DNA of 64,000 nt, taken from positions 34,631,692 through 34,695,691 of the forward strand of contig NC_057719.1 of assembly GCF_004010195.1 (NCBI RefSeq). The letters are read 5' to 3'. The first letter of the stretch is position 1, and each line of letters starts with the position of its first letter. The notes beneath the pieces are model-generated. The model was not told the origin of the DNA. It searched no databases and saw only the letters and a program-made list of their open reading frames with translations. Position numbers and translations under genes: made by a program. Shown one piece after another: positions 7,135 through 57,840 of this stretch. The stretch comes from Chiloscyllium plagiosum. Taxonomy: Eukaryota.

Positions 7135-10119
7135 AAATATACAGGATTTTGCTTCTAGGAGAATGATCGGTGCCCAGTGGCAGGGTAAGGCTGGAGCAGG
7201 TGAAGGAAATGTCTTATAGGGTCAGGGAGGATAGGAGTTATTATTGGGAGCAGATATAGGAATTGAGAATGGTCACTGCTAAAACAAACAGGGTCCTGTC
7301 AAGGGAGTTGGAAGATGGTGAGGGCATTAGGCAGGATGGAAGGGCTGGAGTGATACTTGACCAAGGGGGATTGGGTGCAGACTATCAGAGAGTAATCAGA
7401 TGGTGGTGAAAGAGACAGATTATCTTGGCGAATTGGGGGTAACACTGCTGCTCCTCTCGGCCCATAAGCAGAGCTGGAAAGGATATTCATTTTTCCAGTC
7501 CTTGCTTCCCTTTAGCTGCCAGGTTTTCTGATGCCAAGGAAACCCAGCCAGACAGTGTTAAATTTAAAATGAAAATAAAATCTGAGAAAAGCAGTCTCTA
7601 AAATATTTACATGAACAGATTTGTCCTTGTGGCAGACTGATTGCTTCCCCACTGCATGTCTTCTTTAAACTGGAAGTGAATAGGATTGAGGTGGTTGGAG
7701 TCAGGTTTGAGATTTCTTTAAACTTTTATATCCCACCCAACCCACATACCTATGGCTTGAGGCTGGTGTGATGGGGGTTATTAAAACCCTTCCTCTGTCT
7801 GAGCTCCCGCAATATTCTTTCCAGTGGCAGCCTTTTAAACGTCTGACTCTGTTCTCTCTGTTACCTTATAGCCACAATCTCAAGAAGGGTGTGAGGATGC
7901 TATAATCACCTGAGAAATCCAGCAATGATGGGGCTTTCGTTTAGTAAAATGCTGCATTCTCCCACCTGACAGCAGGACCAATGGGTGGGGAATGCAACAA
8001 AGTCGGAGAGATTTTTGGTGCAGTCGCTAGAGAGGATTAGCCCATTTCAAAGGAGCACCACAGTTTACTTCTGAGGCCCAATGCAATATTCAACCCAAGG
8101 AGACTGAAAAATCAATAACCTACCATGTTTTAAAGTGACAGAATAAAAACAAAGTGGATCACTCGTTGGCTATTTGAAATAAAAGTAAAGATGGTTCAAG
8201 AAATAATGAGTAATCTGTTCCATCAGAATATTACACAAATCCTGAAAATGATGAAAATCTCCTCCCTCTTGTCATCCTTTAAAGTGGAGTGTAAACTATT
8301 TATGATGCAGGGTGGCATACCTTCTGCTGTTGGCTTATGTCACCAAATATGTTATAAATACAGTTTCCATTGAGTTCCATGTTCTTGAATAGTTTCCCAT
8401 CTTTTTAATAAGACAAGATAATCCTGCCATTTTCAATCTGTTTCCACAACAGTATGAAAGTCTCATGCGATTACTTTCTCACTAGAATAACTCTTACTGC
8501 AATTATCGGTAGTTCAAAATCTATGCTCCTAAATTTTCTGAACTGTTTGAGGATACATTAGACAGCCCCTGAAAATGGGCAGAGGGATCACAACGTTAGG
8601 TTATCCAGTGTCATTGCAATGCAGGCAGTTTGCCAACTTTCGGCTGCCCACTGATTTAAATGATATCAGCATCCAGCCAGAACTATCTGAGCAGTTAATC
8701 ATCTGGATAATTCATCAGGTGGCCAATATAAAGAATTACTAACTTCAGTTAAAACTAGCCTGCACTGATGTACAAAATGGTACATCATGGGAATCAGCTC
8801 AATTTTAGCACTGCAGTGGAGGAGATAGAAAGAAGAACAGTTTTCCTGCAAACTACAGGGGTCAAAATGTCCTCTTGACATTCACTCAGAAGGTAAAGGA
8901 GATAGGTAGCCATGGATGTCAAATTCAGCAGTCAAGCTCTGAAGTCCTAGAAGCCGAACTGAAGCATATGCAATGGTCTCACACGTGTGAGAAATGTTAA
9001 TAAGTGCATTTGCAATACAATATGCTATTAATAGCTTCAAGCACTGACAATCAACTACATTTTCATTATTTACCTATCAATAATCTCTCTGCTCCACCAC
9101 ACCCTGGCACATCTAATACAGCAGCAAGTCTCACATCCACATCTCATGGTTTGCACGCACTGTTAGCTATCCAACCATCGCACACAGATTGCATGTATCA
9201 CAATGAAAAAGGTCCTCTTCCTTGCTGAAAATGATTGCACATAACAGGACGCAGCAGAAGCTAACTGGAAAGGGACAGGTGCATCTGGTTGCCTTAACCC
9301 TCATGAAGAAAATGGTGCTGGCCATTGTTTCTATGACTATTTCTGAGACTGTCAAATAGATGTCAAATAGCAAATGATGTCAAAGGTCATATGTCATATA
9401 CAGATGGTTTATTTTTCTTTTATTGGAGATTGTCATTGGCTGGTACTAATGAAGCACTAATGTTTATTGCCATCTTAACAAACCAAGCCTGAATGTTGTC
9501 CAAGTATTGTTTCAGTATCGGAGGGGTTGTGAATGGTGTGAATTGTCCAAACATCAGTGAGCATCTTCACTTCTGACCTAACGATGCAAAGGTCAACAAA
9601 AGTGCAGGCACAAATATATTCTTCAGTGCATGCCACATGACTCCAAGTGGCAACTTATAACAACCAAATGAGCACCGAATACCTGTAGCAAAAGCAAAAG
9701 AAATCTTCTGGTAACAAATCGTTAAGACTTTGATAATGATTTTAAATAGCACTGGTACATCGAAAATGGGAATCCTTCCTGTTGCAGAATATAGATTCAA
9801 CTCTGTCAAAGTTTAGCACCAAGTTCCAAAATGGCAGCATTGACATTAAGTAAGCATAATGTTGACTGGCATCATGAACTGACTGCTTTGCATTCCAGTC
9901 AACATTGACGGCAGCATGGTAACACCCTCACCAATATGGTAACTAACATAATTCATAGGCACGCCATTGACACTAGTCAGCTCTCACACCATTCAGCTCT
10001 AGGGCAATAGTGGCCATAAACATTCCAATTTCTTTCTCTTTGGCTTTGTAATGTCTCTTCACTTCTTAGATCAATAGATATACTAGATTTTTTTTATCTG
10101 TGTATCAAACATTAGATAG

Positions 10120-10268
10120 GAGAAAGTGAGGTCTGCAGATGCTGGAGATCAGAGATGGAAATGTGTTGCTGCACATTCCTGAAGAAGGGCTAATGCCCGA
10201 AACGTCGATTCTCCTGTTCCCTAGATGCTGCCTGACCTGCTGCGCTTTTCCAGCAACACATTTCCATC
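10120..10268 (+). mobile_element. Penelope-derived mini-element with hammerhead motif, partial palindrome
   Basis: TSD ATCAAACATTAGATAG at 10104-10119 and 10266-10281 (first 3 nt overlap the element end); inverted 34-nt tail 10120-10153; inverted repeat 10154-10171 / 10251-10268. Confidence 0.85.
10172..10212 (+). ncRNA. Minimal type I hammerhead ribozyme motif
   Basis: CTGAAGA (10179-10185), A, GGGC-TAAT-GCCC stem II, GAAA (10199-10202), CG, TC; palindromic ACGT in stem III; stem I only ~2-3 bp. Confidence 0.75.
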
Positions 10269-10860
10269 AAACATTAGATAGTCATATTCAAAGTTATACA
10301 GCAAAGTCATTCACTTCCTTAGCACATGCTTGAATTCCAATACCACAGCATATGACAATTCATTTGCTTGTTATAATGATACCATCAGGAATTATCTCCA
10401 AAATAAGAAAAGCAATGAAAATAACACCAAATTGTGCCTTTAGCAGCATGCATTGTAATTTCACCTCTTCAGAGGACTTTAGTTGTTAAGTTGCACACTT
10501 CCTTTTTCAAAACTGACATTTCTGTACTAAAAATAAATATTATAGCAACTATATGAGTGGCCTGAAACGTATAAATATAATAGGAGTACCGTAAGGCCAT
10601 AATAATTAAGTTTAAGTTTATTTTGTTAAAATGGGTTCCTGTGACGTGATAGCCAGCTAAAGATACGAATTTTAGATGCCTGATTAATTGATCCAGTGAT
10701 ATACAACTGCTGTATCAATGTGATATGTCACAGAACAATAGTAAATTCATGCTCATAACTTTTTAATTTTACTCAAGGCATGAAGATTCAATATAAAGCA
10801 TAGAGAAGAAGGAGGGAGAGATCAGGCACTAATTAAGCTAAGGTTGATCATCAGCAGTTG

Positions 10861-11153
10861 GGTGGCATGGTGGATCAGTGGTAGCACTGCTACCCCACAG
10901 TAGCAGGGACCTGAGTACAATTCCTACCTTGGGTGACTGCCTGTGTGGAGTTTGCACATTCTCCCGTGTCTGTGTGGGTTTGCTCTGGTTTTCTCCCATG
11001 GTCCAAAGACATGAAGGTCGGATGAATTGGCCATAGTGTAAGGTGCCTTAGTCAGGGGTAAATATCAGAAAATAGATCTGGGTGGGTTACCCTTTAAAGG
11101 GTCTGTGTGGACTTGTTAGGCTAAATGGCCTGTTTCCACACTTAGGGAATCTA
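10861..11153 (+). mobile_element. HE1-like V-SINE
   Basis: GGTGGCATGGTGGATCAGTGGTAGCACTGC head, V-domain, GGCCTGTTTCCACAC tail. Confidence 0.85.
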
Positions 11154-13954: not shown

Positions 13955-14225
13955 TAGATTAGATTAGATTAGATTAGATTACTTACAGTGTGGAAACAGG
14001 CCCTTCGGCCCAACAAGTCCACACCGATCCGCCCAAGCGCAACCCACCCATATCCCTACATTTACCCCTTACCTAACACTACGGGCAATTTAGCATGGCC
14101 AATTCACCTAACCTGCACATCTTTGGACTGTGGGAGGAAACCGGAGCACCCGGAGGAAACCCACGCAGACACGGGGAGAACGTGCAAACTCCACACAGTC
14201 AGTCGCCTGAGGCGGGAATTGAACC
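13955..14225 (-). mobile_element. Young HE1-like V-SINE, 5'-truncated at the B box
   Basis: (TAGAT)n tail, near-consensus body, stops at GGCGGGAATTGAACC. Confidence 0.9.
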
Positions 14226-15805: not shown

Positions 15806-15814
15806 TGGTCAGTG

Positions 15815-17910: not shown

Positions 17911-17914
17911 AATG

Positions 17915-18265: not shown

Positions 18266-20827
18266 GTTGTAGGGAAATTATTCGAGAAGATTAAGGACAT
18301 GATTTATTCACATTTGGAAAAGAATGGATTTATTAGGGACAATCAGCGTGGTTTTATGCAGGAGGTGATCTTTGATGGAAATTTTTGAGGAAATGTTTGA
18401 TGAGCATAGGGCAGTGGCCATGTCCCACATGGACTTTACTCATTACTCATGACTACGTTTCTCAAATGAGGCTGGTCCTGATGATTAAGTCAACTGGGAC
18501 CCATGGTGCATGGTAAGTTGGATACAAAATTGGCTTGGTCATAGAAGACAGAGGGTAGTTATGGAGGAGTGTTTTTCTGTCAGGAAGTCTGTGATCAGTA
18601 GTGGTCTCCAAGGATCAGTGCTGGGACCTCTGTTATTTGTCAATATATAAAAGATTTTGATGAAAGATTTGATTTCAGATAGTCAACATGGTTTCGTCAA
18701 GGGCATGTAGTGTCTCACAAACCTCATTGAGTTTTTTGAGAAGGTGACCAAGCATAAAGATGAAAGTAAGCAGTTGTCGTGGTATAATGGACTTCAGTAA
18801 AGCCTTTGATAAGGTTCCACATGGTAGGCTATTGGAGAAAATGCAGAGGCATGGAATTGAGGGTGATTTAGCAGTTTGGATTAGAAACTGGCTTTCTGAA
18901 AGAAGGCAAACGAGTGGTGGTTGATGGAAAATATTCAGCCTGGAGACCGGTTAGCAGTGGTAGTTTTGGGACCACTGCTGTTTGTCATTTTTATAAATGA
19001 CTTAGACGCAGGCATAGATGGATGGATTAGTAAATTTGCAGATGACACTAAAGTCGGTGGAATAGTGGACAGTTTGGAAGAATGTTACAGGTTGCAGGGA
19101 GAATTGGATAAACTGCAGAACTGGGCTGAGAGGTGGAAAATGGAGTTCAATGCAGCTAAATGTGAGGTGATGCACCTTGGGAAGAATAACAGGAAGGCAG
19201 AGTACTAGGTCAATGGAAAGATTCTTGGTAGTGTGGATGTGCAGACGGATCTTGGAGTCCATGTACATAGATCCCTGAAAGTTGCCACCCAGGTGGATAG
19301 TGCTGTTAAGAAGGCATACAGTGTGTTAGATTTCATTTGTAAAGGGATTGAGTTCCGGATCCACAATACCATGCTGCAACCATACAAAATGCTGGTGCGG
19401 CCACACTTGGAATATTGTGTACAGTTCTGGTCACCATATTTAGGGAAGGATGTGGAAGCATCAGAAAAGATGCAGAGGAGATTTACCAGGATGTTGCCTG
19501 GTCTGGAGGGAAGGTCTAATGAGGAAAGGCTGAGAGACTTGAACCTGTTCTCATTGGCAAGAAGAAGGCTAAGAAGGGATTTGATAGAGACATACAAGAT
19601 GATCAGAGGATTATATAGGGTAGACAGTGAAAGTCTTTTTCCTAGGATGATGACGTGATGAGGGGGCATAACTACAAATTGAGGTGTGATAGATTTAAGA
19701 CAGATGTCAGAGGCGGTTCTTTACGCAGAGAGTGGTATGGGTATGGAATGCCCTACCTGCTAATGTAGTTAACTCAGCCACATTAGGGAGATTTAAACAA
19801 TCCTTAGATAAGCACATGGATGATTTTGGGATAGTGTCGGGGGACAAGGTGAGAATAGTTCACAGGTCGGCGCAACATTGAGGGCCGAAGGGCCTGCACT
19901 GTATTGTTCTATGTTCTATGTTCTATATGTTCTAAACTGTAGGTGGTCTGATTAGTAAGCTTACAGACAAGGCATATCAAAAGATATAGCAGGTATAGAT
20001 CAGCTGAAAAGCTGGGCAAAAAAATGGCAAATCGAGTTTCATCTAGACAAATGAGAGGTGATGCATTTTGAAAGGTCAAATAAAAGGGGAAAGTATACAG
20101 TAAATAGCAGGACTCTTAGGAACACTGATGTACAAAGGGATGCAAGTCTATAGCTCCCGGAGACTGGCAACACTCATGCATAAGGTGATAAAGAAGGCAT
20201 ATGGCATGCTTGCCTTCATTGATTGGGGCATTGAGTACAAAAGTGGGAAAGTCATACTGAAGCTGTACAAAACTTCAATTAGCCCACGTTTGGAGCATTG
20301 TGTGCAGTTCTGGTAGCCACAATATAGGAAGGATTTGGAGGCTTTGGAGAGGGTCCATTAAAGGCTGCCCAGGATGTTGTCTGGGTTTGAGTGTGTTAGC
20401 TATAAGGAGAGGTTGGACAAACCTGAATTGTTTTCATGAAGGCAAATGGGTGGTCTGATAGAGGTATATAAAATTATGAGAAGCATGAATAGGATGGACT
20501 GTTAAAGTCAAAGGTTTAAAGAAGGTGAATGTTTAAAGGAGATGTACATAAGACCAGACGGTATAAGTTTTCAGTTGGGGAGTAAGTGGTTTAGTGGGGA
20601 TTTAAGCAAACATTTATTTCACCCAGGAGGCAGTGGGAATGTGGAACACACTGCCTGAGAAGATGGTGGAGACAGGTACCCTCACAACATTGAAGAACCG
20701 TCTGGGTGAGTACTTAAAATGCCAAGGTATTATAGGCTATGGAACAAGTGCAGGTAAATGGAAGTGAAGTTTGGATTTCGTTGGTGAGCACAGGCATGGT
20801 TAGCCAGAGGGCCTGTGACTCTCTGAC
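18266..20827 (+). mobile_element. Older CR1 ORF2 fragment hosting a younger CR1
   Basis: RT motifs at 18340-18660; ORF 20128-20316 KAYGMLAFI...PRLEHCVQFW; 3' end AGAGGGCCTGTGACTCT. Confidence 0.75.
18665..19933 (+). mobile_element. 5'-truncated CR1 (RT through 3' UTR), nested
   Basis: ORF 18921-19208 ([13 protein letters not shown]...KFADDTK) and ORF 19233-19658 (VRPHLEYCVQFW); (GTTCTAT)n tail at 19906-19933. Confidence 0.9.
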
Positions 20828-22632: not shown

Positions 22633-23019
22633 GAAATGCTTCGAGTGGCTGTTAGAGGGGAGGACAGTGGGGGTGAAGTTGACCAGGGTCGGGAATGTGC
22701 TGGGTGATGGGGTCTGGGTTGGATGCTGCTGCAGGAGTTGTTGAGCAGAGCGACGGTAGATAGAGTCATAGAGATGTATAGCATGGAAACAGACCCTTTA
22801 TTCCAACCAATCCATAAGGACCAGATATCCCAGCCAAGTCTTGTCCCACCTGCCAGCACCCTGCCAATATCTCTCCAAACCCTTCCTATTCATATACCCG
22901 TCCAGATGCCTTTTAAATGTTGCAATTGTACCAGCCTCCACCACATTTCATGGAATATGTTTCATGGAGAACTAGCCATTTGGATACAGAACTGGCTCAA
23001 AGGTAGAAGGCAGAGGGTG

Positions 23020-23185
23020 NNNNNNNNNNNNNNNNNNNNNNNNNNNNNNNNNNNNNNNNNNNNNNNNNNNNNNNNNNNNNNNNNNNNNNNNNNNNNNNNN
23101 NNNNNNNNNNNNNNNNNNNNNNNNNNNNNNNNNNNNNNNNNNNNNNNNNNNNNNNNNNNNNNNNNNNNNNNNNNNNNNNNNNNNN
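23020..23185. other. Assembly gap (N run)
   Basis: Run of n characters. Confidence 0.99.
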
Positions 23186-23252
23186 AAGGGCCTGTTTCCA
23201 CACTGTAAGTAATCTAAATCTAAATCTAAATCTAAAGTAATCTAAATCTAAA
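23186..23252 (+). mobile_element. 3' tail of an HE1-like SINE emerging from the gap
   Basis: AAGGGCCTGTTTCCACACTGTAAGTAATCTAAA with (TCTAAA)n. Confidence 0.8.
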
Positions 23253-23264
23253 TTCCCTGGCAGC

Positions 23265-25810
23265 TTATTCCATATATGTACCACTTTCTGTGTGAAAAAT
23301 GTTGCCCCTTAGGTTCCTTTTATATCTTTCCCCTCTCACCCTAAACCTATGCCCTCTAGTTCTAGACTCCCCACACCACCCCCCCCCAAGAAAGAGACTT
23401 TGTCTATTTATCCTATCCATGCCCCTCATGATTTTATAAACCTCTTGAAGATTATCCCTCAGCCTCCGACGCTCCAGGGAAAACAGCCCCAGCCTATTCA
23501 ACCTCTCCTGATAGCTCAAATCCTCCAAACCTGGCACCATCCTTGCAAATCCTTTCTGAAGCCTTTCAAATTTCACAACATCCTTCTGATAGGAAGGAGA
23601 CTAGAATTGCATGCAATATTCCAAAACTGGCCTAACCAATGTCCTGTACACTTGCAACATGACCTCCCAACTCCTATACGCAATACTCTGACCAATAAAG
23701 GAAAGCATACCAAATACCTTCTTCACTATCCTATCTACCTGCAACTCCACTTTCAAGGAGATATGAAGCTGCACTCCAAGGTCTCTTTGTTCAGAAACAC
23801 TCCGGAGGACCTTACCATAAAGTGTTTAAGTCCTGCTAAGATTTGCTTTCCCAAAATGCAGTACCTCGCATTTATCTGAATTAACTCCATCTGCCACTTC
23901 TAAGCCCATTGGCCCATCTGATCAAGTTCTTGTTGTAATCTGAGGTAGCCCTCTTCACTGTCCACAATACCTCAAATTTTGATGTCATTTGCAAACTTAC
24001 TAACTATACCTCTTATGCTCACATCCAAATCATTATATAAATGGCAAAAAGTAAAGGACCCAGCAACAATCATTGTGGCACTCTACTGGTCACAGGCCTC
24101 CAGTCTGAAAAACAACCCTCCATCACCACCCTCTGTCTTCTACCTTTGAGCCAGTTCTGTATCCAAATGGCTAGTTCTCCATGAAACGTATTCCATGATA
24201 TCTACCTTGCTAATCAGTCTCCCATGGGGAACCTTGTTGAACGCCTTACTGAAGTCCATATAGATCACATCCACTGCTCTGCCCTCTTCGATTCTCTTTG
24301 TTACTTCTTCAAAAAATCAAGTTTGTGAGACATGATTTCCTTCGCACAAAGCCATGTTGACTATCCCCAATCAGTCCGTGCCTTTCCAAATACATGTACA
24401 TCCTGTCCCTCAGGATTCCCTTCAACAACTTGCCCACTACTGACATCAGGCTCACCGGTCTATAGTTCCCTGACTTGTCCTTACCACTTCTCTTAAACAT
24501 TGGCACCACATTTGCCAACCTCCAGTCTTCCAGCACCTCAGCTGTGACTATTGATGATACAAATATCTCAGTGAGAGGCCCAGCAATCACTTCCCCAGCT
24601 TCCCACATAGTTCTAGGGTACACCTAATCAGGTCCTATGGATTTATCCACTTTTATGTTTTTCAAGACATCCAGCACTTCTTCCTCTGTAATATGGATAT
24701 TTTTGAAGATGTCACCATCTATTTCCCTACATTCTAAATCTTCCATGCCCTTTTCCACAGTAAATACTGATGCAAAATACTCATTAAGTACCTCCCCCAT
24801 CTCCTGCGGCTCCACACAAAGGCTGCCTTGCTGATCTTTGAGGGGCGAAAGCGAGGACTGCAGATACTGGAGATCAGAGTCTAGATTAGAGTGGTGCTGG
24901 AAAAGCACAGCAGGAGGAGCAAGAAAATCGATGTTTCGAGCAAAAGCCCTCATCAGGAATGAGCTTAGAGGGGCCCTATTCTCTCCCTAGTACCCTTTTG
25001 TTCTTTAATGTATTTGTAAAAACCCTTTGGATTCTCCTTAACCCTATTTGCCAAAGCTATCTCATGTCCCCTTTTTGCCGTCCTGACTTCTCTCTTAAGT
25101 ATATTCCTACTACCTTTATACTCTTCTAAGGATTCATTCGATCTATCCTGTCTATGCCTGACATATGCTTCCTTCTTTTTCTTAACCAAACCCTCAAGTT
25201 CTTTAGTCATCCAGCACTCTCTAAACTTAGCAGCCTTTCCTTTCACCCTAACAGGAATAGACGGTCTCTGGACTCTCATTACCTCATTTCTGAAGGCTTC
25301 CCATTTTCCAGCCGTCCCTTTATCTGAGAACATCTGCCCCCAATCAGCTTTTGAAAGTTCTTGCCTCATACCATAAAAATTGGCCTTCCTTCAATTGAGA
25401 CCTTCAACTTTTAGATCTGGTCTATCCTTTTCCATCACTATTTTACAACTAATAGAATTATGGTCGCTGGCCCCAAAGGGCTTCCCCACTGACACCTCAG
25501 TCACCTGGCCTGCCTTATTTTCCAAGAGTAGGTCAAGTTTTGCACCTACTCTATTAGGTATATCCGCATATTGATTCAGGAGATTTCCTTGTACACATTT
25601 AACAAATTCCTCTCCATCTAAACCCTTAACATTATGGCAATCCCAATCTATGTTTGGAAAGTTAAAATCCCCTACCCTAACCACCCTATTATTCTTACAG
25701 ATAGCTGAGATCTCCTTACAAATTTGTTTCTCAATTTCCCTCTGACTATTAGGGGGTCTATAATACAATCCCAGTAAGGTGATCATCCCTTTTTTATTTC
25801 TCAGTTCCAA
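23265..25810 (-). pseudogene. CR1 ORF2 (APE endonuclease plus reverse transcriptase), frameshifted
   Basis: Colinear ORF pieces 25391-25810, 24965-25369, 24624-24840, 24309-24623 and 23265-23576. Confidence 0.9.
24847..24964 (-). mobile_element. Penelope-derived mini-element with a canonical CUGAUGA hammerhead core, inserted in CR1 ORF2
   Basis: Minus strand CTGATGA-GGGC-TTTT-GCTC-GAAA-CATC (24956-24930); TSD TTTGAGGGGC 24837-24846 / TTAGAGGGGC 24965-24974; tail present. Confidence 0.8.
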
Positions 25811-26257: not shown

Positions 26258-26926
26258 CTATATTCTCTTCAGAATCTCAACCTTTTCCCTTCCTATGTCA
26301 TTGGTTCCAATGTGAACAATAACCTCCTGCTGGTCCCTCTCCCCCTTAAGAATATTCTGCACCCTCCCTGAGACATCCTTGATCCTGGCACCAGGAAGGC
26401 AACACACCATTCTGATTTTTCGCTGCTGGCCACAGAAACGTCTGTCTGTGCCTTGGACTAGAGAGTCCCCTAACATAATTGATCTCTTGGAACCCAATGT
26501 ACCCCGCATTGCATTAGAGCCAGACTCAATACCAGAAACTGGGTTGTTTGTGCTACATTCCCCTGAGAATGCATCACCCCCTACATTTTCCAAAACAGCA
26601 TACCTGGTTGAAATGGGAATAGCCACAGAAGACTGCGGCACTACCTGCCTACCTCTCTTACCTTTCCTGGAGTTAACCCATCTATGTGACATTATCTGCA
26701 ACTTTTCCCCCTCCCTATAACTGCCATCCATCACATCCCATTGGCCTTGTAAATTCCTCATTGCCTCTAACTGTCTCTCCAACCAAGCCATTCGATCTGA
26801 TAGGATTTGCAACCTATGGCAGTTATTGCAGATATAATCCTCAGTAACCCGTAAACTCTCCCTAAACTCCCATATCTGACAAGAAGAGCATTTCACTGTA
26901 CTAAAGGTCATTTCTGCTTCTTTCAA
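26258..26926 (-). pseudogene. CR1 ORF1 (zinc finger, coiled coil, SGNH esterase), C-terminally disrupted
   Basis: CSSC...CNNC zinc finger; GDSL, LPGA and HIGTND esterase blocks. Confidence 0.9.
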
Positions 26927-27700
26927 TCTACAGACCCAGAAAATAGCACTGTCTTATTCCTCTACAAAACACTGCTCCATGCTAACTTAATACTTATGGC
27001 TTATATCTTTAAGTTTAATCAAGACACATATCTCAATATAACATATAATCAAGAAAGAACCCACTCTAGTCACTACTGCAGACTTACTGTAAGGCCACAT
27101 TTAAAAATATTCACTTATCTGTTTCTGTGCTGTGACCTCTCCCAAAAAAATACCTCCAAGATTAGTTGCGAAGTTCACTATTTGTTAATTTTCCCAGATG
27201 TACTACGATGTCCAGCAATACATGAATTCAAACAGCAAAGGCAGTAACTGCCCAGGTTCACTGCTGTGTCATTTAGCAGTTGTGAGTTTCTCTCTCTCTC
27301 TCTCTCCCTCTCTCCCTGCACTGACCTTACCATATGCTGCCTTTATCTGTTTCTCTCCCTTCTAAAAGTGCTATTGTTTGACTTTCTTTCTCTCCAAAGA
27401 TCCAAAATAGTGCAACAGCATAAAAAAAACAGTAATTGCTGCTCCTGGAATTTGAGCAAATCATCTCCAACACCTAAAATCCCTCAAAAAAGAAGCAGCC
27501 TGTTCCAGCCAAAAATGTTTTCGGTCCTCCATCTTGGATTACTGGTTCACGGCCTTCGCCATTCAGTGCCTTAAAAGTTTTGCACCTAACATCGTGCACC
27601 AGTGCTCAGGTGTGTGGTGGAATCCTATCTGCGCGTGCGCAATTTCACATAGGCCTCAGTATCCCGTACCTCCCGTGAGAGCCTGTGCCCCACAACCTGA

Positions 27701-28272: not shown

Positions 28273-28367
28273 CCCTTCCTGAAGAAGGGCTAATGCCCGA
28301 AACGTCGATTCTCCTGTTCCCTAGATGCTGCCTGACCTGCTGCGCTTTTCCAGCAACACATTTCCAT
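28273..28367 (+). mobile_element. Penelope-derived hammerhead mini-element, single arm
   Basis: TSD CTATGGAG 28265-28272 / 28368-28375; 28277-28368 is identical to 10177-10268, including the intact hammerhead core. Confidence 0.85.
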
Positions 28368-29413: not shown

Positions 29414-29556
29414 GAGCTGAAAATGTGTTGCTGGAAAAGCGCAGCAGGTCAGGCAGCATCCAAGGAGCAGGAGAATCGATATCACAGGGTGAGGGTGATA
29501 GGCCGGAGAGGGGATGGGGACGGAGAGGTCAGGAAGAAGATTGCAGGTCAATTTCA
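29414..29556 (-). mobile_element. Penelope-derived mini-element lacking the hammerhead core
   Basis: TSD AGTTCAAATATGTA 29400-29413 / 29557-29570; 29414-29480 matches the arm at 53642-53706, joined to a segment that is pyrimidine-rich on the minus strand. Confidence 0.8.
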
Positions 29557-30399: not shown

Positions 30400-32110
30400 A
30401 CACCTCAGCCATGCCCCTGTCTCCATTTGTAAATCTGCTTTTTGATCTCTAATTGGCCCTATTCCTCTTGAAACCATTCTTCTACGATTTGTGTATCTAT
30501 GGAAGACTTTGGGGTTCTTCTTTATAGAATCATGGAATGGAACCATAGAATTATACAGTAAAGAAGTGGCCCTTCAGTCCATTGAGTCTGTACCACCAAA
30601 ACAATGTAAAATCTACACCTGTCTCACTTCCCAGCACTTGGCCCATAGCTGTGAATGTTAGAACAGTTGAAGCACTCATCCGAGTACTTTTTAAAGATTG
30701 TGAGGCTACATGTCTTAACTACCCTCTGGTGCTTCCAGGTCCCACCACTCTTTGGGTGAAACCTGTTTTCCTCAAATCCCATCTAAAATTTGTGCCTTTC
30801 AACTTAAAATCCACCTTATGCTAGCTGCTAGTTTTTTTCTCATAATTTCTCTTTGCTTCTCTTCTTTGCTTTTTCACCTCCCCTCTAAAACTTCAGAATT
30901 CCTCTTGGTTCTTATTTGTATTTTCTGCCTCACACCTGTCATAAGCATATTTTAGTTTCTAATGGTAACTTCTACCTCCTTTGTCAACCAGGGAATTTTG
31001 GATTTCCTTCACCTGTTGTTTTCCATTTGAGGGAGTATGCCTTGAGCCACTTCCTCTTTAAAAAAGTAATCTATTGTTCAGTTACCATTTCTCATATCAG
31101 CTTCTTGTTTCAGTCAGTCTTGTCTAGCTCTGTTTTTGCCCCATTGAGATCAGCTCTCCACCAATTGATTTTTCTTGGTCTGGATTGTTGCATGTCATTC
31201 TCCCTGATGATCCTGAACCTTATGATGCAATGATTACTATCTCCTAATCAATCATCCACTGACATTTGATCCAATTGTCCCAAGTCATTTCCATGGACCA
31301 AGTCAAACACTGCATCCTTCCTCTGAGGAAGGGTCACTGGATCTGAAACGTTAACTCTGATTTTTCTCCACAGATGCTGCCAGACCTGCTGAGCTTTTCC
31401 AACAATTTCTGTTTCTGTTTCTGATTTCCAGAATCAGCAGTTCTTTCGGTTTTTAAACTACATCCTTCCTTGTTGGGCTGAACACATTTGGCTGGAGAGA
31501 ACTCTCCTTAACATATTCTAGGAACACTTGACCCACACTGACCTTTACACTATCAGTATTCCAGTTTATATGTGGGCAACTAAAGTCCCCCATTATATCT
31601 GCTCTATAACGTTGGCATTTCTCTGTAAATCCCCTGCATATTTGTTCCTGTATATAAGGGCCTATTAAGTTAATAGTGATAGAGGGCTAACCACTAATGA
31701 GTCTTGACTAGATATACTTAATAGATTGATAACAGATACAAGTTACATTGGCTAGGCTCACAAAATAATTAAGACTATCAAGAAACAATGATAGCACATC
31801 TGTCTCCTTCAGGATCTTGAGCAAGATCATTTTCTCCACCCAAGACTGTATGATATCATCAGATTGAGTAGGGCTTATTCAGTCTCCAATATTGATGCTT
31901 TTAGAACTATTGATGTAAAGTATTTTGTATAAGGCAATGATGTTGGTGCCAATATAGACCACAATCTCTAGTATTTATCCTCCTCAGAATGCTCTGCAGC
32001 CAATCAATGATAACTTTGACACTAGCTCCAGGGAGACAACATACCATTTCCAATCCATATCAGTGGGCACAGAGACATCCCTATCCATAAGATCTCCTTA
32101 TTTAGGCTCT
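30400..32110 (-). mobile_element. Old CR1 fragments (APE and ORF1 esterase region) with a nested CR1 3' end at ~30525-30815
   Basis: TAAAGTCCCCCAT (minus: MGDF) near 31581; GATGTTGGTGCCAATAT (minus: IGTNI) near 31940. Confidence 0.55.
31323..31456 (+). mobile_element. Penelope-derived mini-element starting exactly at the hammerhead core
   Basis: CTGAGGA-A-GGGTC-ACTG-GATCT-GAAA-CGTT; TSD ACTGCATCCTTCCT 31309-31322 / ACTACATCCTTCCT 31457-31470. Confidence 0.8.
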
Positions 32111-36705: not shown

Positions 36706-37467
36706 TGAGGTCCAACTGGCTGACATCATTACAATCACTGTAGATGATGATGTACAGAAAAATTATTCACTTTGCTAGTGACACCCTTCATAAAGTTAAG
36801 CTTATTCAAAATATTCCTACTAAACAAAATCTTGCTCTCTCATCATATCAATGGTTCATGACATATATTTGTTTCCAAGTCTCCAAATGTTTGAAATCTA
36901 CAAATCTCATCCATGGCCCCACCAGTTCCTAAATCTGTCTTCTGTATTATAATAAACTGTTACTCTGTTTCTCCGACTCTGATTTCTCATGTTTCCTCAC
37001 TTGGTCCACTCTGCCACCACTGACCATGCTTTCAATTGTTTAGGTTCCATGCTTTCCAGTTCTCTACCTGAACCTTTCCACCTTTTCTTCTTAGACAGAA
37101 AAATAAGTAACAAAAAGTAACATTTGGAAAATAACACATGGTAACTTTAGAGGTCTATTTCAGGTATGCAAGAGGAGTTGGACCAGTTTGTGTTATTTCC
37201 AAGTTTGTCTGGCTTTTCCTGCTCTCTCTCTTCTTTTAAAACCCTCTTTGAATCCAAGAAAGTTTTTTGGACACACCTCCAAATATCAGCCTTTTGGAGC
37301 TTGAACATTTATTTTTTAATGATGCATCCATGAGGAATACAAGGATAGCTGTAGCATATTGAAATCCCCCATCATCTTATAAGATCATGGCTGAACCTTT
37401 ACATCAACTCCACTCTCACACACTCTGCTGTTATCCCTTAACTCCTGTAAATCAGCACCAAATCCTC

Positions 37468-37722
37468 AGTTAAAAATCACACAACACCAGGTTATAGTCT
37501 GACAGGTTTATTTGGAAGCACCAGCTTTAGGAGTGTTGCTCCTTTATCAGGTGGTTGTGGAGTATAAGATCACTGATCTTACGATCTTATACTCTACAAC
37601 CACTTGATAAAGGAACAACACTCTGAAAGTTGGTGATTCCAAATAAACCTGTTGGACTATAACCTGGTGTTGTGTGATTTTTAACTTAGTACCCCCAGTT
37701 CAACACTGGCATCTCCGAATCA
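37468..37722 (+). mobile_element. Palindromic Penelope-derived mini-element, second family
   Basis: 104-bp arms 37468-37571 / 37583-37686, ~36-nt one-sided tail 37687-37722; decayed hammerhead cores (CTTGATAAAGGAAC...TCTGAAAGTTG and its mirror); ACCAAATC on both flanks. Confidence 0.8.
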
Positions 37723-37984
37723 AGACCAAATCTTTAGAATACCAATGTGTATTTGTGTCTCATCTTATAAAATATATTCCACTCTTCCATTCTTTCCATC
37801 AACATGGATGCTTTCACACTCCACATATTAGACTCTATCTGCCTCTGTCTTGCCCAATTATCCAATACCTTAATCATTATCTTGTGCAGCATCTTTGTGT
37901 CCTAATTACTTTCTGACCTACATTTGTATCACTGGCAAACTTGCATACATTATATTCGGTTTCCTCACCCATCATTGTTATATT

Positions 37985-39188: not shown

Positions 39189-39398
39189 GAGAAAGTGAGG
39201 TCTGCAGATGCTGGAGATCAAAGTTGAAACTTTATTGCTGGAACAGCACAGCAGGTCAGGCAGCATCCAGGGAACAGGAGATTCGACGTTTCGGGCACAG
39301 GCCCTTCTTCCTGTGAAGGGCCTGTGCCCGAAACGTCGAATCTCCTGTTCCCTGGATGCTGCCTGACCTGCTGTGCTGTTCCAGCAATAAAGTTTCAA
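39189..39398. mobile_element. Perfect palindromic Penelope-derived mini-element
   Basis: 85-bp arms 39223-39307 / 39315-39399 with no mismatches; 34-nt tail 39189-39222; TSD CCCTGCTGTTAATG 39175-39188 / 39399-39412. Confidence 0.92.
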
Positions 39399-46974: not shown

Positions 46975-47865
46975 ATCAAAGACTCAGTCATAAAACAGGG
47001 CAACAGACCCTTCGATCCAACTCATCTACACCGACTAGATATCCTAAACTGAACCAATCTCATTTACTTGCATTTGGCCCACATACCTCTATGTTCCCAT
47101 ACTGATGCCTTTTAAATGTTTTAATTGTACCCACATCTAGCACTTTATCTGGCAGCTCATTCCATACATGCACCACACCCTGTGTGAAAAGGTGTACCTC
47201 AGGTCTTTTTAAAATCTTTCCCCTCTCACCTTAAACCCATGCCCTCTAATTGTGGACTCCTCTACACTAGGTAAAATGCCATGGCTATTTACCCTATCCA
47301 TGCCCTTCTTGAGTTTATAACTCTCTATAAGGTCACCCCTCAGCCTTAACGTTCAGTCAAAAAAAATCCCAATCCTTACAGCCTCTCCCTAGAGCTCAAA
47401 TCTTCCAACCCTCCAATCTCAACAACAACCCTGTAAATCTTTCTGCACCCTTTCAAGTTTAACAACATCCTTCCTATAGCAGGCTACTAGAATTGTACAC
47501 AGTATCTATAAGTAGCCTTACCAATGTCCTGTACAGCCACAATATGTGTAGCATGGTGGCACAGTGGTTAGCACTGCTGCCTCACAGCACCAGAGACCCG
47601 GGTTCAATTCCTGCCTCAGGTGACTCTCTGTATGGAGTTTGCACGTTCTCCCCATGTCTGCGTGGGTTTTCTCCCACAATCCAAAAATGTGTAGGTTAGG
47701 TGAATTGGCCATGCTAAATTGCCTGTAGTATTAGGGGAATGGGTCTGGGTGGATTACGGGTCGGTGTGGACTTATTGGGCCGAAGGGCCTGTTTCCACAC
47801 TGTAAGTAATCTAATCAACATGACATCCCAACTTATATATTAAATGCACTGACCAACAAAAGCAA
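46975..47865 (-). mobile_element. CR1 3' fragment hosting a SINE
   Basis: CAGACCCTTCGATCCAAC 3' end; colinear with 22760-22940 and 23255-23700. Confidence 0.75.
47547..47815 (+). mobile_element. HE1-like V-SINE with TSD
   Basis: Full A and B boxes; TSD CAATATG 47540-47546 / CAACATG 47816-47822. Confidence 0.9.
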
Positions 47866-47867
47866 TC

Positions 47868-47968
47868 CGAAACAAAACCACAAAGTGCTTGTGAAACTCA
47901 ACAGGTCTGGAAGCAGGTGTGGACAGGAACAGTTAACATTTCAAATCCAGATACCCCTACATCCGAAC
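47868..47968 (-). mobile_element. Highly decayed Penelope-derived mini-element
   Basis: AACTCAACAGGTCTGG...CAGTTAACATTTCA mirrors 31345-31395. Confidence 0.45.
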
Positions 47969-51353: not shown

Positions 51354-51476
51354 CAGTGAAGATGACTTTTGCCCGAAATGTCAATTCTCCTGGTCCTCAG
51401 ATGCTGCCTGATCTGCTGTTCTTTTCCAGCACCACACTCTCGACTCTAATCTCCAGCATTTGCAGTCCTCACTTTT
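51354..51476 (+). mobile_element. Penelope-derived mini-element with decayed hammerhead and tail
   Basis: GTGAAGATGACTTTTGCCCGAAATGTC...GATGCTGCCTGATCTGCTG...CTCCAGCATTTGCAGTCCTCACTTTT. Confidence 0.7.
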
Positions 51477-52989
51477 GCTCTGGAGAAGATTGCTGAGCTA
51501 GAAGCATTACATTATATAAATATTGTGGTGAGTAGCTTGAGTAGAGTATACATGAGGGCTGACGAAATACATAGCCCATATGAAAGCCGAGTGTTGTTGC
51601 AAGTTGAATGGGTGTATGCTTGACAAGACACATTGAAAAGGCGTACAGACTTAACCCATAGGATGTCACTTCCTATATTGTAACCAATACTGTGACATAA
51701 TTTTTAAGCTGCTTACCTCATCATCCACCTCCAAGGTTTATCCTAGACTTGACTTACATAACTCCACAATAACAAAACCTCCATTTAGAACCCAGCTTTG
51801 CAATAATTACTAGTGTCCATAATTCCACAGGCAGCAACTGAATATCAGTGTCTACATTTCAAATTGAATTCTCTCTGCAATTCAAGTAAATCATCCCCAT
51901 TTGTAACCTTTTTTGTTTTAGTTATCAGCTTGACAGAAAATTCCAGATTTTGAATAAAGTGGTCTTTATTGTGCTATAAAGAAAATATTTCCATTTAATG
52001 TCTGAAGGATTCTAGTTACTGAGCCAAACAAGTTGATTAGTGAAATAGTTCATTGGGACCATGTGCCCATTCTAACTAACAGTCACCCAAAACAAGCTTT
52101 GTTTTTGAAGAACACATATCTGGGACTGCAATAAATGTACCATATCATGACTGTTATGATTTCACCGGAGAGAAAAAGTGACATGCTTTATCGTCAAGTT
52201 TGTAAAACGGAGCTGTGTCTTATCTATATAAATCAATATAATTGCAGTAGAATTTTGGCAGCATCTGTCATTTTCTTGCAGAAGAACTAACAGATGTGCT
52301 TTCAATATGAGAAACATGATTTTCCTGTACAACAGGTCCCCAGCGAGTATATTTATCTAATATGGAACAGCAGCAAATTATGTAGGGAAATTTCAGGTAG
52401 GTCTATTCATTTTGCATTATGACAATCATGATTTAATAGATAAAAAGAAAAAAAAAACAAAGAAATAGTATACCATCTGTTTGCAAATCTCCCTGTTCTA
52501 ATGATATTATCCCACCATAAGGAACAAATAGTCAACGCAGTATCCCTTAACTACCAGATAATGCAATAAAATTGCAGTTCAGTAGAATATATGGTACAGC
52601 CCATGCCGCCCAGTCATAAATCTTTGTTACATAAAGTTTTTTCTTTGTGAAGTTTTCCCTATTCCTTTCTCTTCATACACTGCAGTAAGATTCCATTAGT
52701 GCTCGGCTATATGTCCATTCATCATGTATGGATGTATAGCGATGGCAAGTAATTGAACTATGGGAAAAGTTAGACATCCTCTTGATGGATTTTATCCAAC
52801 ATCCATACATCAGCAATTTAAGCAAGAATTGCAGATTAGCAATGATGTAAGTCGATTATCATTCTCTTTTGTAATACAAGAGCATAATGGGCAGCCATGT
52901 TGTGATCATCCCACTCAGCAGAGACCTGGGAGTGAGGATGTGGCAGAGATTTCCATTTGTATATCACAATGAGGCTGCATGTCTCAGAT

Positions 52990-53325: not shown

Positions 53326-53643
53326 CACTGAATCATCCAATTTAAATTAAATATAAATTATCTTCCAAGTTTAACACTGGCACAGCTGGATATTGGGAAC
53401 CCAGCAGCTGAAAGGATATAAGAATTTTTTCTTACAAAAGATAAGTTCCTTTATAGCAATGCTTGTAGGCTAAGAGGACAGGCAGGAGGCTGGAAGAACA
53501 CAGCAAGCCAGGCAGCATCAGGAGGTGCAGAAGGCGACATTTTGGGTGTAACCGTTCTTCAGGACTGGGGGTAGATGTGGGGGGAGCTGTAGAGAGGTGA
53601 AGACAGGTAGAGGATACAACCTGGTGGGTCAATGGAGGAATGA

Positions 53644-53865
53644 GTTGAAAATGTGTTGCTGGAAAAGCGCAGCAGGTCAGGCAGCATCCAAGGAACAGGA
53701 GAATCAACGTTTCGGGCATAAGCCCTTCTTCGGGATTTCCTGAAGAAGGGCTTATGCCCGAAACATCGACTCTCCTGTTCCTTGGATGCTGCCTGACCTG
53801 CTGCGCTTTTCCAGCAACACATTTTCAGCTCTGATCTCCAGCATCTGCAGTCCTCACTTTCTACA
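53644..53865. mobile_element. Palindromic hammerhead mini-element nested in the PLE 3' region
   Basis: TSD CAATGGAGGAATGA 53630-53643 / 53866-53879; ~92-bp arms; ~34-nt tail 53830-53863; plus-strand core CTGAAGA 53740-53746...GAAA 53760-53763. Confidence 0.9.
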
Positions 53866-53949
53866 CAATGGAGGAATGAATCCAGTTGGTGGCCAGGAAC
53901 AATAGAAGGGAGGGGAAGGGACTGGGAAGAGAGTCGGGGGAAGGGGAGG

Positions 53950-54290
53950 TTATTTGAAATTGGAGAACTCAATGTTGAGTCCTCCTGTCTGTAGGGTGCC
54001 CAGTTGGAAGATAAGGTGTTGCTCCTTCAGTAGGAGCTGTGATTTGTTTTGGCAATGGAGGAGGTCAAGGATGGTCATTTCAGGAAGGGAGTGGTTGGGG
54101 GAATTGAAATGGGCTGTAACTGGGAGGTCCAGTGGGCCCCTGCAGACCTGGTTGATCTGCTCGGTGAGCCGTGCCCTGAGTTTACATTCAATCTCCCCAA
54201 TGTAGAGAAGACTACATTGGGAGCATCTGATGCAGTAAACTAGGTTGGAAGAGTGGCAGGTGAGCCTCTGTCTCACCTGGAAGAACTGTT
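53950..54290 (-). pseudogene. PLE GIY-YIG endonuclease domain
   Basis: TCHSSNLVYCIRCSQCSLLYIGE...LRARL...AHF...KEQHLIFQLGTLQTGGLN; the CxxC between the two tyrosine motifs is typical of Neptune-type PLEs. Confidence 0.9.
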
Positions 54291-54579
54291 GGGGCCCTGG
54301 ATGGAGGTGAGGCGTATGGTGCACTGGCAAGTTTTGCACCTATTCTGGTTGCAGGGAAAGGTACCTGGGGGTCCAGTGACTGGGGTGGTGTGAACCAAGG
54401 ACTGTTGGAGGGAACAGTCTTTGCAGAGGCAGAGAGGGGTGGGGAGAGGAAGATGTCCATGGTGGTGGGGTCTATTTGGAGTTAGTGGAAGTGTTGGGGG
54501 ATGATGACTTGACTGTGGAGACTGGTGGGGTAGTAGGTGAGGACAAGGAGTCTCTGTCTTTATTGCGTTGGTGGGGGTG

Positions 54580-55985
54580 TTTAAAGCAGTGGAGCAGGGA
54601 ATGGAGGTGGTGTGGGCCAGGGCTGTCTGGATGATGGAGGGATGAAAAGTACATTATTCAAAACAAGTGGACATCTGGAAAGCTTGCAAGTAGAATGCCT
54701 CCTCATCCAAGTAGATGCGGCAGAGGTGGAGGAATTGGGAGAACAGGATGGAGTCTTGCAGGATACTGGGTGGGAGGAAGTGTGGTTCAGATAGTTATGG
54801 GAGTCTGTGGGTTTGTAGTAAACATCTGTCTGCAGACTGACGCTGGAGTTGGAAATGGAGACGTCAAGAAAGGGGAGGGAGGTGTCCAAGACGGACCAAG
54901 TGAATTTGAGGGCAGAAGTTGATGAACTGGTCCAGTTCAGCCTGGGTGCAGGACACTGCACTGATGCAGTCATCAATGTAACAGCGGAAGAGTTGGGGTA
55001 CAGTGCTAGTGCTGAAGAGGGACTGTTCGATGTGGCCGTCAGAGGCAGCATAGCTGGGGCCCATCCAGGTACCCATGGCCATCCCCTTGATTTGAAGGAA
55101 ATGGGAGAAGTTAAAGGAAAAGTTATTGAGGGTGAAGACCAGTTCGGCGAGGTGGAGGAGGGTGTTTGTGAAGAGGATGAATGAGTCCACTGGAGAGAAA
55201 GAAGTGGAGGGCCTGGAGGCATCCTTGTGGGCTACAGATGTGTATAAGCACTGCACATCCATAGTGAAGAGAAAGCGCTGTCGGCCAGGAAGTTGCTGAA
55301 GAGATGAAGGACATGGTTGGTCTCATGGATGCAGGTGGGAAGTGCCTGAACTAAGGGGGAGAAGATGGAGTTGAGGAAGGACAAGATGAGTTCGGTGGGG
55401 CAGGTGCATGCCGAGACGATGGGTCAGCTAGGGTAGTTGGGCTTGTGGATCTTGGGGAGCAGGTAGACCCAGGCAGTGCGGGCTGAGAGACTATGAGTTT
55501 GGAGGCAGTGGAGGGAGATCACCAGAGGCAATGAGGGCACTTATGGTGTCTTGGATTTGCCGTGATGGGTCGCAGTGAGGTCATGGGCAAGGGGCAGGTA
55601 GGACATGGTGTCGGAGAGTTGGCGTTCGGCCTCTGTGATATAGAGGTCTGTCCTCCAGACTACCATTGCCCCGCCTTTGTCAGCGGGTTTGATGGTGAAC
55701 CGGGGGTTGTTGCAGAGAGAGTGGAGTGCTGCACATTTGGAGGGGGTGATGTTGGAGTGGGTGAGAGGGTGGGGAAATTGAGACTGCCGATGTCACGTTG
55801 GCAGTGTACAATGAAAAAGATCTAGGGCAGGTACCAGGGGTGAGGGGTGACCAAGTGGAGCAGAAAGGTTGGAAGTGGGTGAAGGGGTTGTCCAAGGGAG
55901 TTTGGGAGTCCCCATCAAAGAAGAAAGCACAGAGGTGGAGGCAAAGGTGGAAGAAGAGCTCCACGTCACAGCAGATCTTTAATTC
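54580..55985 (-). pseudogene. PLE reverse transcriptase, frameshifted
   Basis: ORF 54864-55262 (MDVQCLYTS...NNFSFN...GMAMGT...YIDD); ORF 54581-55222 tail (LPFLDV...VYYKPTD). Confidence 0.9.
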
Positions 55986-56849
55986 TCTGAGGTGGGGGCA
56001 GAGGGACATGAACACGAGCACTCCCCCAATCTCCACTATCCCCACCCCACCTCAAGGAGCAGGACTGCTATCCGCAATACTCTAAGCTTATCGTTTTCCT
56101 GGCCTGCCATGTGACCCCACCACTTCCATCAGATTGAAATCACCCATGCTCAGGATTGGGCACCTCATGATTCAGAAACCCTGTCCCTATCACATGGTCT
56201 CACTCACCCAGCTTCTAACTTGCTAGAAGCATCCTCACAGAACAGCAATGATGCAAGTTGATTATCACACCCCTCTGTCATACAAGACCAGTATGAGGAT
56301 TTTCCATATGAGAGGGAGTAATACCTGCCAATCGGCTGGCTTCAAGAAAGCGAACTTCCTCGGAGAGCAGGATGTATGTTGAAACAGTGAAACACTTTAG
56401 AAACGTTGACCTCTAGATTTGCTGTTCAAAACATATTCCCATCTTCCCCACAAACCTGCCCAAATAAATACCAGGGGCAGGGTTACAAATCTAGCTTAAC
56501 ACCATATTAGGCACTTATGTTTATCTCTAAGTAATAAGACTTAGCAGAGATTTCCATCTAAATTTTAAACTATATCACAGCGTGTTTTTGCACCACGTTG
56601 AATCTTCACATACTTTTGTTACAGTGGAGTGCAATGGATTTTTACAGACTATTTCCAATTCTAGAGGTGACACAATGGCGCAACATCTGGCAGAGTATAT
56701 AGCTCCTTTGAGTGAGCTTATTACAGATTTTGGTTTAAAAATTCAGCAATCCAGCTATGACTCTTCTGAAGATTTCTGTACAAAAATTACCTTAAGAAAG
56801 TAACGTCAACAATCAAAGAAAGGAATTAGTGTTTTGTAATTGCTCTATC

Positions 56850-57237
56850 TACAGGATATCCCAAAGAACTTGGAATCTTTAATTTATTTTTTAAATGTAA
56901 TAGTTGTTATGTTAATATCTATGGCATCAAATGTGCCTGTAGCTGGGGGTCACAAACAAGTCAGTTGACTCATCCGTTAGTCTGGCTTATATGGTGTTGG
57001 TTAAGGAAAGAATATTGACCAGGACACTGGGAGAATTACCAGTCTTCTTCAAATAGTACCACAGAATCTCATCCATTCACCTCAACTGGAGAATGATGTT
57101 TCAATTTAATATTTCATGTATTTCATCATGCATAGTATTGCAACAGACTGTCAACCTAGGTAATAAACATATATCCTGGAGTGGTACTAAAACCTACACC
57201 TTCTAACTCAGAGATGAGAGTGCTACCAGTTGAGCCA
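56850..57237 (-). mobile_element. Deu-domain SINE (SacSINE1/AmnSINE-like)
   Basis: AATATTGACCAGGACACTGGGAGAA...TTCACCTCA...CTAACTCAGAGATGAGAGTGCTACCAGTTGAGCCA. Confidence 0.6.
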
Positions 57238-57732
57238 AATCTATATTGATCTATTAATCTCTATGTCTATCATCTGGAAAATAGAGAGATTGGAGATAAT
57301 TCATCAATGCCATTATCAAATGGGGGATAATTCTAAGAATCAGAGTCACAGTTAGCTTCTGCCTGTAAACTGAGAATTTATTTTATATTGACATATTATA
57401 GTGTTTATATATCTAACTATGTGATGAGTAAAGATATAGCTATAATGTGAAGAAAATTTAGTCCATTGATCCTTTATAGGTAGATAAGCTGGAAAGAGAC
57501 CAATATGTATTGGTCTGTATTATTTTGATGTTCAACGAACACAGGAAGAAACAGATTATTTAGTCGTTTAACTCATGTATTTTAGATTTTGCCATACACA
57601 AATGCCTGCTACATTTGCCCATGTCAGACCAGTGAACTGTGTTTGAAACATATTTCAATTGTTGTGCATTTTAGATTGGTCTGTGCACATGGAAGGCACA
57701 AAAACAATGCTAGCTGTTTCTTCCAAAAAGCA

Positions 57733-57840
57733 GGATTCTGATGAAAAGCCATTGATCTGAAATGTTAACATCTGTTTCTCTCTCGCCATGGATGCTACCT
57801 GACCTGCTGTTGGCAGTTTCCAACATTTTCTGTTTTGAGT
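57733..57840 (+). mobile_element. Old Penelope-derived mini-element with CUGAUGA core
   Basis: CTGATGA 57738-57744, eroded stem II, GAAATGTTAAC, then GATGCTACCTGACCTGCTG. Confidence 0.65.

Follow-up and report, generated by a model that had tools for sequence, protein, structure and literature searches.

What gives rise to the short non-coding insertions, many of them bearing a hammerhead ribozyme motif, that lie scattered over a 64,000-nt stretch of the genome of the shark Chiloscyllium plagiosum (contig NC_057719.1, positions 34,631,692 to 34,695,691 of the forward strand; this whole stretch is called the window)? A preliminary description of the window had counted about 10 such insertions plus a decayed one, and had regarded them as mini-retroelements derived from the pseudo-long terminal repeats (pLTRs) of Penelope-like elements (PLEs); all 11 sites are confirmed to be present. 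From comparison with copies elsewhere in the genome, these short copies (minis) are probably the hammerhead-bearing ends of autonomous PLEs, mostly cDNAs primed at two internal sites near the 5' end of the element RNA and run off at its cap.

Parent elements and the hammerhead motif

In the 3.56-Gb assembly, where copies were counted by exact sequence patterns with the reversed patterns as control, a hammerhead 36-mer gave 6,060 matches, a 28-mer downstream of the ribozyme 16,514 and a pattern of family E (that of the window insertion at 37468) 4,655, versus none for each reversed pattern. BLAST at E<=1e-3, run without a shuffled control, found 51 pieces in 197,937 random bases (20 random 10-kb stretches), or 1 per 3.9 kb, a higher density than the copy per 6 kb or so first proposed; 41 pieces are left without the 37468 family. 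A structure-aware descriptor of the ribozyme matched 11 times in 200 kb of random genome and three times in the window, versus 0 in each of 10 and of 20 shuffles, respectively. The samples of 100 used below were taken from the start of contigs C1-C3 and consist of young copies fitting the exact patterns. The pLTR-derived units of which a mini is built, here called arms, are 95-100% identical; long copies are under-sampled because N gaps of the assembly fall in them.

The PLE origin is borne out by loci that continue beyond the ribozyme. Several of 30 loci with the hammerhead 36-mer extend far enough upstream to include a pLTR and a GIY-YIG frame, and a search with a reverse transcriptase (RT) piece retrieved copies with long open frames, so that matching autonomous PLEs do exist. 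One of them, L150, has a 749-aa open frame with RVT_1 above the cut-off (E=1.2e-8) and GIY-YIG just below it (E=2.9e-4, 21.5 bits against 22.6), and another, L145, has an 893-aa frame with a tandem-duplicated start. The tailed arm of the window insertion at 39189 is identical to the 3' end of L150 at 123/123 positions. The parent of family A, to which the window insertions at 10120, 28273, 39189 and 53644 belong, has one open reading frame (ORF) containing RT and C-terminal GIY-YIG, as in an endonuclease-bearing (EN+) PLE, and a pLTR with a hammerhead, a 30-40-bp tail continuing into the ORF start and a target site duplication (TSD) are all present; no complete copy with both pLTRs was recovered among the long family A copies. 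A CX2-5CxxC Cys motif lies between RT and endonuclease in L145, L150, L022 and the family B element of the window, and this linker is described as a Neptune feature in the accessible part of a survey of PLEs (PMC8557442). The parents are presumably Neptune-type, a clade name taken from this linker alone, which Nematis also has. Many short tandem duplications are found inside the ORF of long family A copies (L143-L160, e.g. L145, L149 and L150); in L149 one of them is repeated dozens of times, by enzyme slippage or as an assembly artefact.

The arms of the minis match those of the ORF-linked copies closely. Of 220 mini arms that lack the upstream pLTR, 119 show full identity over 83 nt with an arm running into pLTR or ORF, 171 come within 2 mismatches of one, and 25 differ by at least 10 in an ungapped count. 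Family E is more distant: an endonuclease remnant in one of its loci is 27% identical to that of family A (E=4e-6). The minis are thus ends of PLEs that belong to five or more variants or families, in line with the three or more subfamilies anticipated earlier.

The motif is a minimal type I hammerhead with core boxes, stem II and a palindromic stem III, and it shows the covariation between families that had been put forward as a check. Among 128 distinct cores, gathered without requiring pairing, stem II pairs 1-4 are formed in 95-99%, and compensatory double changes occur in stem II (G-C/A-U and C-G/G-C/U-A), stem III (C-G/G-C) and stem I (U-A/A-U), being few independent events, all between families. 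An Rfam scan of the window matched no hammerhead family and gave weak false microRNA matches, and the monomer folds no better than its shuffles (z 0.69, 0.39 and -0.40).

Arm ends and the inferred cap boundary

Ends were mapped on the first 100 of the 16,514 matches to the 28-mer 3' of the ribozyme, a choice that leaves the 5' end unselected, although 3' ends shorter than +87 are not seen with this pattern. Position 0 is the first C (C3) of the CUGANGA box, and the predicted ribozyme cut lies between +27 and +28. The 3' ends fall into two equal classes, 50 at +87..94 (untailed arms) and 50 at +124..129 (tailed arms), with none between; the 33-nt gap corresponds to the PLE tail that continues into the ORF start. 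As for the 5' ends, 73 of 94 scorable arms (6 further ones are cut by N gaps) end at -12..+10, of which 45 at -6..-1, and none at -13..-70, the rest lying beyond -70 (8) or at +14..+54 (13). The cut site was therefore rejected as the arm boundary, as only 2/94 ends lie near +28, and the ribozyme is likely a passenger of the 5' end whose predicted cut site is not where copies end.

The same ends bear on spreading of non-LTR retrozyme monomers via ribozyme-cut circular RNAs, which is hardly credible here. Such retrozymes are, according to the accessible part of a preprint (bioRxiv 10.64898/2026.07.22.740005), likewise pLTR-derived, hammerhead-bearing and non-coding, with dispersed monomers, and are present in a chondrichthyan; a few head-to-tail joints do occur in contigs of the shark. 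However, they are defined there by tandem units, whereas the shark minis are single or inverted (tandem arrays in 0/75 insertions), with bounds at PLE priming sites and at the inferred transcription start. A hand check of 200 listed matches found no jump onto a ribozyme-cut 3' end and no cut-end junction.

The 5' boundary coincides with a sequence that may serve as a transcription start. The template at -6..0 is TCATTCC, with A at -4, which we take to be an initiator-type motif. Where family A arms start at -4 behind a non-template base, this base is G in 64/100 (first 100 of 4,689 matches, hand count), as compared with an expected 27%; the template base there is C. Arms of variant A3 at -4 have G in 50/100, or 50/84 without one clone (hand count), and the base one further out from the -4 arms is G in 24/100. 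Among unselected arms G precedes -4 in 8/13 versus -3 or -2 in 5/31 (Fisher p=0.009), and in 7/30 loci read the extra G lies outside both TSD and partner arm. An origin from a G-bearing subfamily or a mutation hot spot was rejected by copies running on upstream, in which the non-C base is G in 10, A in 17 and T in 73. A template switch onto the cut 3' product is also unlikely as a source, since the G persists in A3, whose post-cut bases differ. In other retroelements an extra G is known to indicate a capped template.

Families A-D have a TATA-like motif at -33..-37, about 30 nt upstream of the boundary, and in C it is canonical. In family E it is shifted to -38..-40, which predicted a start near -8, and arms of this family starting at A(-8) were then found to be preceded by G in 70/100 (first 100). 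Thus box, boundary and extra G shift together in an unrelated family. In contigs of one sequencing run, which may not be independent of the assembly, depth drops about tenfold across -4 and an extra base is found at joints from -4. The boundary region recurs at ORF-start loci, a selected set with acceptors at +192..+531: in 14/30 of them an arm from -12..-4 sits right behind a piece of the ORF start which in turn extends back to the ribozyme, and the template therefore had the ORF downstream. On reaching the boundary, the enzyme would have made a jump to the 5' portion of an element RNA.

Ordinary 5' truncation of copies from the 3' pLTR, in which the enzyme would halt at a ribozyme that is folded or bound by protein, with the junctions set by microhomology there, is an unlikely source of the boundary. 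It is in keeping with junctions that use short complementary pieces of core and stem II, and heavy 5' truncation together with an inverted copy is known for PLE insertions (accessible text of PMC8557442), yet it predicts neither a -4-specific extra G and its shift to -8 with the TATA-like box in family E nor arms joined behind ORF-start fragments, and the monomer folds weakly, as noted above.

Several observations weigh against a cap run-off origin. G is common also before -1 (8/15) and -5 (5/10); the former comes mostly from one junction whose partner arm supplies the G, but the signal is blurred all the same. About half of the extra Gs that were read could also be counted as TSD or partner sequence, as part of a microhomology. 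The TATA-like motif of A, B and D is non-canonical, and in family E the boundary is broader (39/57 at -14..+10) and 14/30 loci extend far upstream. An RNA run with 2,624 reads, 93% of which run on into other sequence, showed no pile of starts or ends, the library being uninformative on this point; a second raw RNA run contained no element reads. Finally, transcription of a mini from an initiator of its own would yield the same single-arm products as those ascribed here to by-products.

A side observation concerns stem I. With G instead of the template's C at -5, the base expected from a cap, the stem gains a fifth pair (window 10175-10211; L150:5357-5393), and in variant A3 the same G makes it a perfect 5-bp stem.

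Inverted pairs and a model of copying

The 100 mapped matches represent 75 insertions, 33 single (5 next to a gap) and 42 inverted pairs. The pairs comprise 31 tailed+untailed, 2 tailed+tailed, no untailed+untailed and 9 with a partner ending elsewhere; the mixed type thus makes up 31/33 of the classifiable pairs (p=7e-8). TSDs peak at 14-15 bp, being 13-16 bp long in 35/75 insertions and at least 9 bp in 50/75. The inversion junctions use short complementary stretches of core and stem II and mostly differ copy by copy, recurrent ones occurring in different variants. Miniature inverted-repeat transposable elements (MITEs) are not what these pairs resemble: their arms are unequal owing to the tail, the TSD length is not fixed and the junctions vary. 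Unrelated host sequence is captured between the two inverted arms of one insertion in L278/L277 (G000:C1:17444331-17444515) and in L130, where the captured piece is itself inverted-duplicated.

Palindromes might also arise by fold-back self-priming of one cDNA, or from an antisense template, as for rotifer PLEs. Some junctions fit this exactly (in L007 the tailed arm runs to -3 and the untailed arm starts inside the core), the arms of a pair share variants, and self-priming is proposed in the accessible text of PMC3846280. In many pairs, however, it is the untailed arm that extends further upstream, and it could not have been templated by the tailed cDNA, and an untailed cDNA folded back cannot supply the tail. 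The extra G is possible on both arms, and single untailed arms with TSD exist (14/75 insertions). Either arm of a pair can reach the inferred cap, and simple fold-back is therefore disfavoured; it is very improbable as the general route.

In the mechanism proposed instead, the initiator at which transcription would start lies 4 nt before the ribozyme core, with the TATA-like box of the upstream pLTR some 30 nt further upstream. Both nicked target strands would then act as primers, at +87..94 or +124..129, some 90 and 125 nt away from the RNA's capped 5' end; the two priming sites are here the end points seen in the genome, and the enzymatic step is known in vitro for an anole PLE, as described in the accessible text of PMC11167929. 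The use of different sites on the two strands might reflect a dimeric enzyme holding one RNA, which is a guess. After about 95 or 130 nt the cDNA would meet the cap and often gain a C opposite to it, read as the extra G. The products seen suggest three outcomes: a single cDNA may be joined alone; two cDNAs may anneal head to head via complementary ribozyme stretches, yielding a tailed+untailed palindrome with a 13-16-bp TSD; or the enzyme may jump to another point of an element RNA. As one clone shows, host read-through transcripts of a few palindromes are later copied, and these palindromes are then truly non-autonomous elements.

Most minis would accordingly be by-products made anew at each insertion, because the arms match ORF-linked copies and the junctions differ from copy to copy. 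The contrary view, that they form a true non-autonomous class whose short masters are transcribed and mobilised in trans, as short interspersed elements (SINEs) are by long ones (LINEs), is quite improbable for the bulk and applies to a minority. One inverted junction recurs in 99 copies (L301-L330 were read); in the 30 copies read, an arm-private single nucleotide polymorphism is present in 14/29 left arms, 0/23 right arms and 0/39 other A3 arms, and two pairs at different loci share identical 5'-transduced host flanks of about 510 and 130 nt. This palindrome is truly non-autonomous, having been copied in trans from host read-through RNA, and makes up a small share: 99 copies against more than 16,000 matches of one 28-mer. 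Otherwise, the minis lack the upstream TATA-like box, most junctions are unique and most arms match ORF-linked copies as counted above. The separate PLE-mobilised class of the preliminary description is supported for this clone and not for the bulk. Two of its copies, L304 and L324, continue into autonomous-element sequence, which suggests co-packaging of mini and parent RNA.

The short cDNAs recall retroviral minus-strand strong-stop DNA, which is primed near the RNA 5' end, extended to the cap and transferred by means of a terminal repeat. The primer is a tRNA there and nicked target DNA here, and the short product is therefore already attached to the chromosome and fixed as an insertion. 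It is possible, though doubtful, that PLEs replicate as a whole like retroviruses on chromosomal primers, with a 90-130-nt terminal repeat from start site to tail, priming mainly at the 5' copy and transfer of the strong-stop cDNA to the 3' copy. Because -4..+125 would recur at the 3' end of the transcript, seamless transfer could rebuild the pLTR. If so, transfer would regenerate the promoter-bearing pLTR, for the regeneration of which no mechanism had been explained (PMC2377424), and failed transfers would leave the minis, palindromes and products of jumps to the ORF start, in their hundreds of thousands, as a record of the intermediate. Three of the 30 ORF-start loci extend upstream of the start site, which read-through of tandem copies explains equally well. 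A cap G was looked for in seamless transfers into long copies and none was seen, so that this test lends such transfer no direct support.

Parts of this picture have been published. Minimal hammerheads with the same core boxes, a bulged base before stem II and a palindromic loopless stem III were reported together with solo copies in the thousands, described as 'probably related to truncated PLEs', and with opposite-strand pairs (PMC4209133). Circular RNA templates were suggested there and ends were not mapped to the start site; the motifs numbered about 4,000 in coelacanth and 9,000 in Xenopus, versus roughly 200,000 extrapolated here from 11 per 200 kb with a different descriptor. In rotifer and other PLEs, an inverted pLTR copy placed head to head, a 30-40-bp tail at one end, a TSD and heavy 5' truncation are likewise described in the accessible parts of two papers (Arkhipova et al. 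2013, PMC3846280; Craig et al. 2021, PMC8557442), which ascribe the inversion to self-priming or to endonuclease resolution; in the shark minis, by contrast, both arms are about 100-130 nt long and stop at the inferred cap, with a near-strict pairing of tailed and untailed arms. The enzyme PAc of anole Poseidon, which belongs to another clade, cuts and extends both strands in vitro from two internal start sites spaced by the tail, at the pLTR-ORF junction beside a stretch of the ORF start that binds protein, and needs no ribozyme cleavage to do so; cap run-off products, palindromes or jumps do not appear in the main text as far as accessible (Frangieh et al. 2024, PMC11167929).

A literature search conducted mostly outside subscription papers, supplements, Repbase and Dfam returned no account of these shark elements. 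Within the same limits, it found for PLEs no mention of cap run-off, strong-stop, twin priming, a cap boundary, an extra G, strict tailed+untailed pairing or ORF-start jumps. The minis are thus a known kind of element with a new mechanistic signature, and as a new class of mobile element they are mostly ordinary. The cap run-off signature is a likely clue to the copying mode of a poorly understood class, and the genome offers a very large young record of insertion intermediates, from which follow predictions of a precise start site, of a cap signature and of coupled two-site priming. For annotation, the pieces (about one per 4-5 kb) belong under PLE ends rather than MITEs, SINEs or microRNA hairpins, so the earlier warning of confusion with MITEs or SINEs was apt.

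Insertions and other repeats in the window

Of family A, variant A1 is represented on the plus strand by an inverted pair at 10120..10265, in which an antisense tailed arm (about +123 to +72) is followed by a sense arm (-5 to +88) with an intact hammerhead (10179-10206), between TSDs of 16 bp (10104-10119 and 10266-10281), and by a single untailed arm from -3 at 28273..28367 (intact hammerhead at 28279, TSD 8 bp), which is identical to that sense arm at 93/93 positions. An A3 pair at 39189..39398 (TSD 14 bp) consists of an antisense tailed arm from +124 to +2 and an untailed sense arm, 100% complementary over 85 nt, and its core is broken at the junction, leaving neither arm with an intact CUGANGA. 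In the A2 pair at 53644..53865, an untailed arm (+91 to -2) meets a tailed one (-3 to about +124), each hammerhead has a decay mutation, and the 14-bp TSD (53630-53643 and 53866-53879) lies in the 3' untranslated region of an older PLE. On the minus strand at 29414..29556, an untailed arm (+92 to +26) is fused to upstream pLTR (-94 to -156) with the hammerhead deleted and a TSD of 14 bp.

The other families contribute single arms and one pair. A tailed family D arm from -7 at 24847..24967 (minus strand, TSD 7 bp) has its hammerhead at 24956 with stem III decayed, and a tailed family C arm at 31323..31460 (plus strand, TSD 10 bp) has one that passes the descriptor. The family E pair at 37465..37724 (arms 37465-37571 and 37583-37689, TSD 8 bp) has both hammerheads decayed and only its right arm tailed. 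Three decayed arms complete the set: one of family C type at 47864..47956 on the minus strand, with 74% identity to 31323, one tailed arm of family A/D type with a broken core at 51357..51478 (plus) and one untailed arm of family C type at 57734..57840 (plus). Exact TSDs of 7-16 bp are present at 8/11 sites (10120, 24847, 28273, 29414, 31323, 37468, 39189 and 53644), and none was found at 47868, 51354 and 57733. A hammerhead core, intact or decayed, had been ascribed to most insertions; 3/11 pass the descriptor (10179, 28279 and 31323), and the losses at 29414 and 39189 qualify the statement. Of the common downstream body ascribed to all but 37468, a part is deleted in 24847, and 47868 has it in a decayed form.

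The window also contains a decayed, 5'-truncated PLE of family B on the minus strand (53472..55928), with RT, a zinc-finger-like linker and GIY-YIG interrupted by frameshifts and stops; tblastn detects RT and GIY-YIG at 55928-53956. A motif homologous to those of the minis had been noted in this element (then placed at 53472-55985), and its own pLTR end indeed carries a decayed hammerhead (53562-53535). As a parent of the minis it was rejected: its endonuclease is only 45% identical to that of family A, and its relatives have their own hammerhead variant. It is an older family and the target of the 53644 insertion, not a source. Young minis inside older PLE copies, including their 3' untranslated regions, are found here (53630-53879) and in L012 and L042, which may point to a target preference.

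On the minus strand, 40530-40572 matches the start of the family A ORF over 43 bp (88%), with neither ribozyme nor tail. SINE-like repeats of about 250 bp occur in both orientations at 10882-11142, 13974-14225, 27690-27981, 29929-30168 and 47537-47804, and presumably resemble the V-SINE/HE1 of sharks. Fragments of CR1-type LINEs at 18518-20384, 22708-24584, 33110-36653 and 26258-26953 include RT (Pfam E=3e-22) and a GDSL-esterase-like ORF1 piece.

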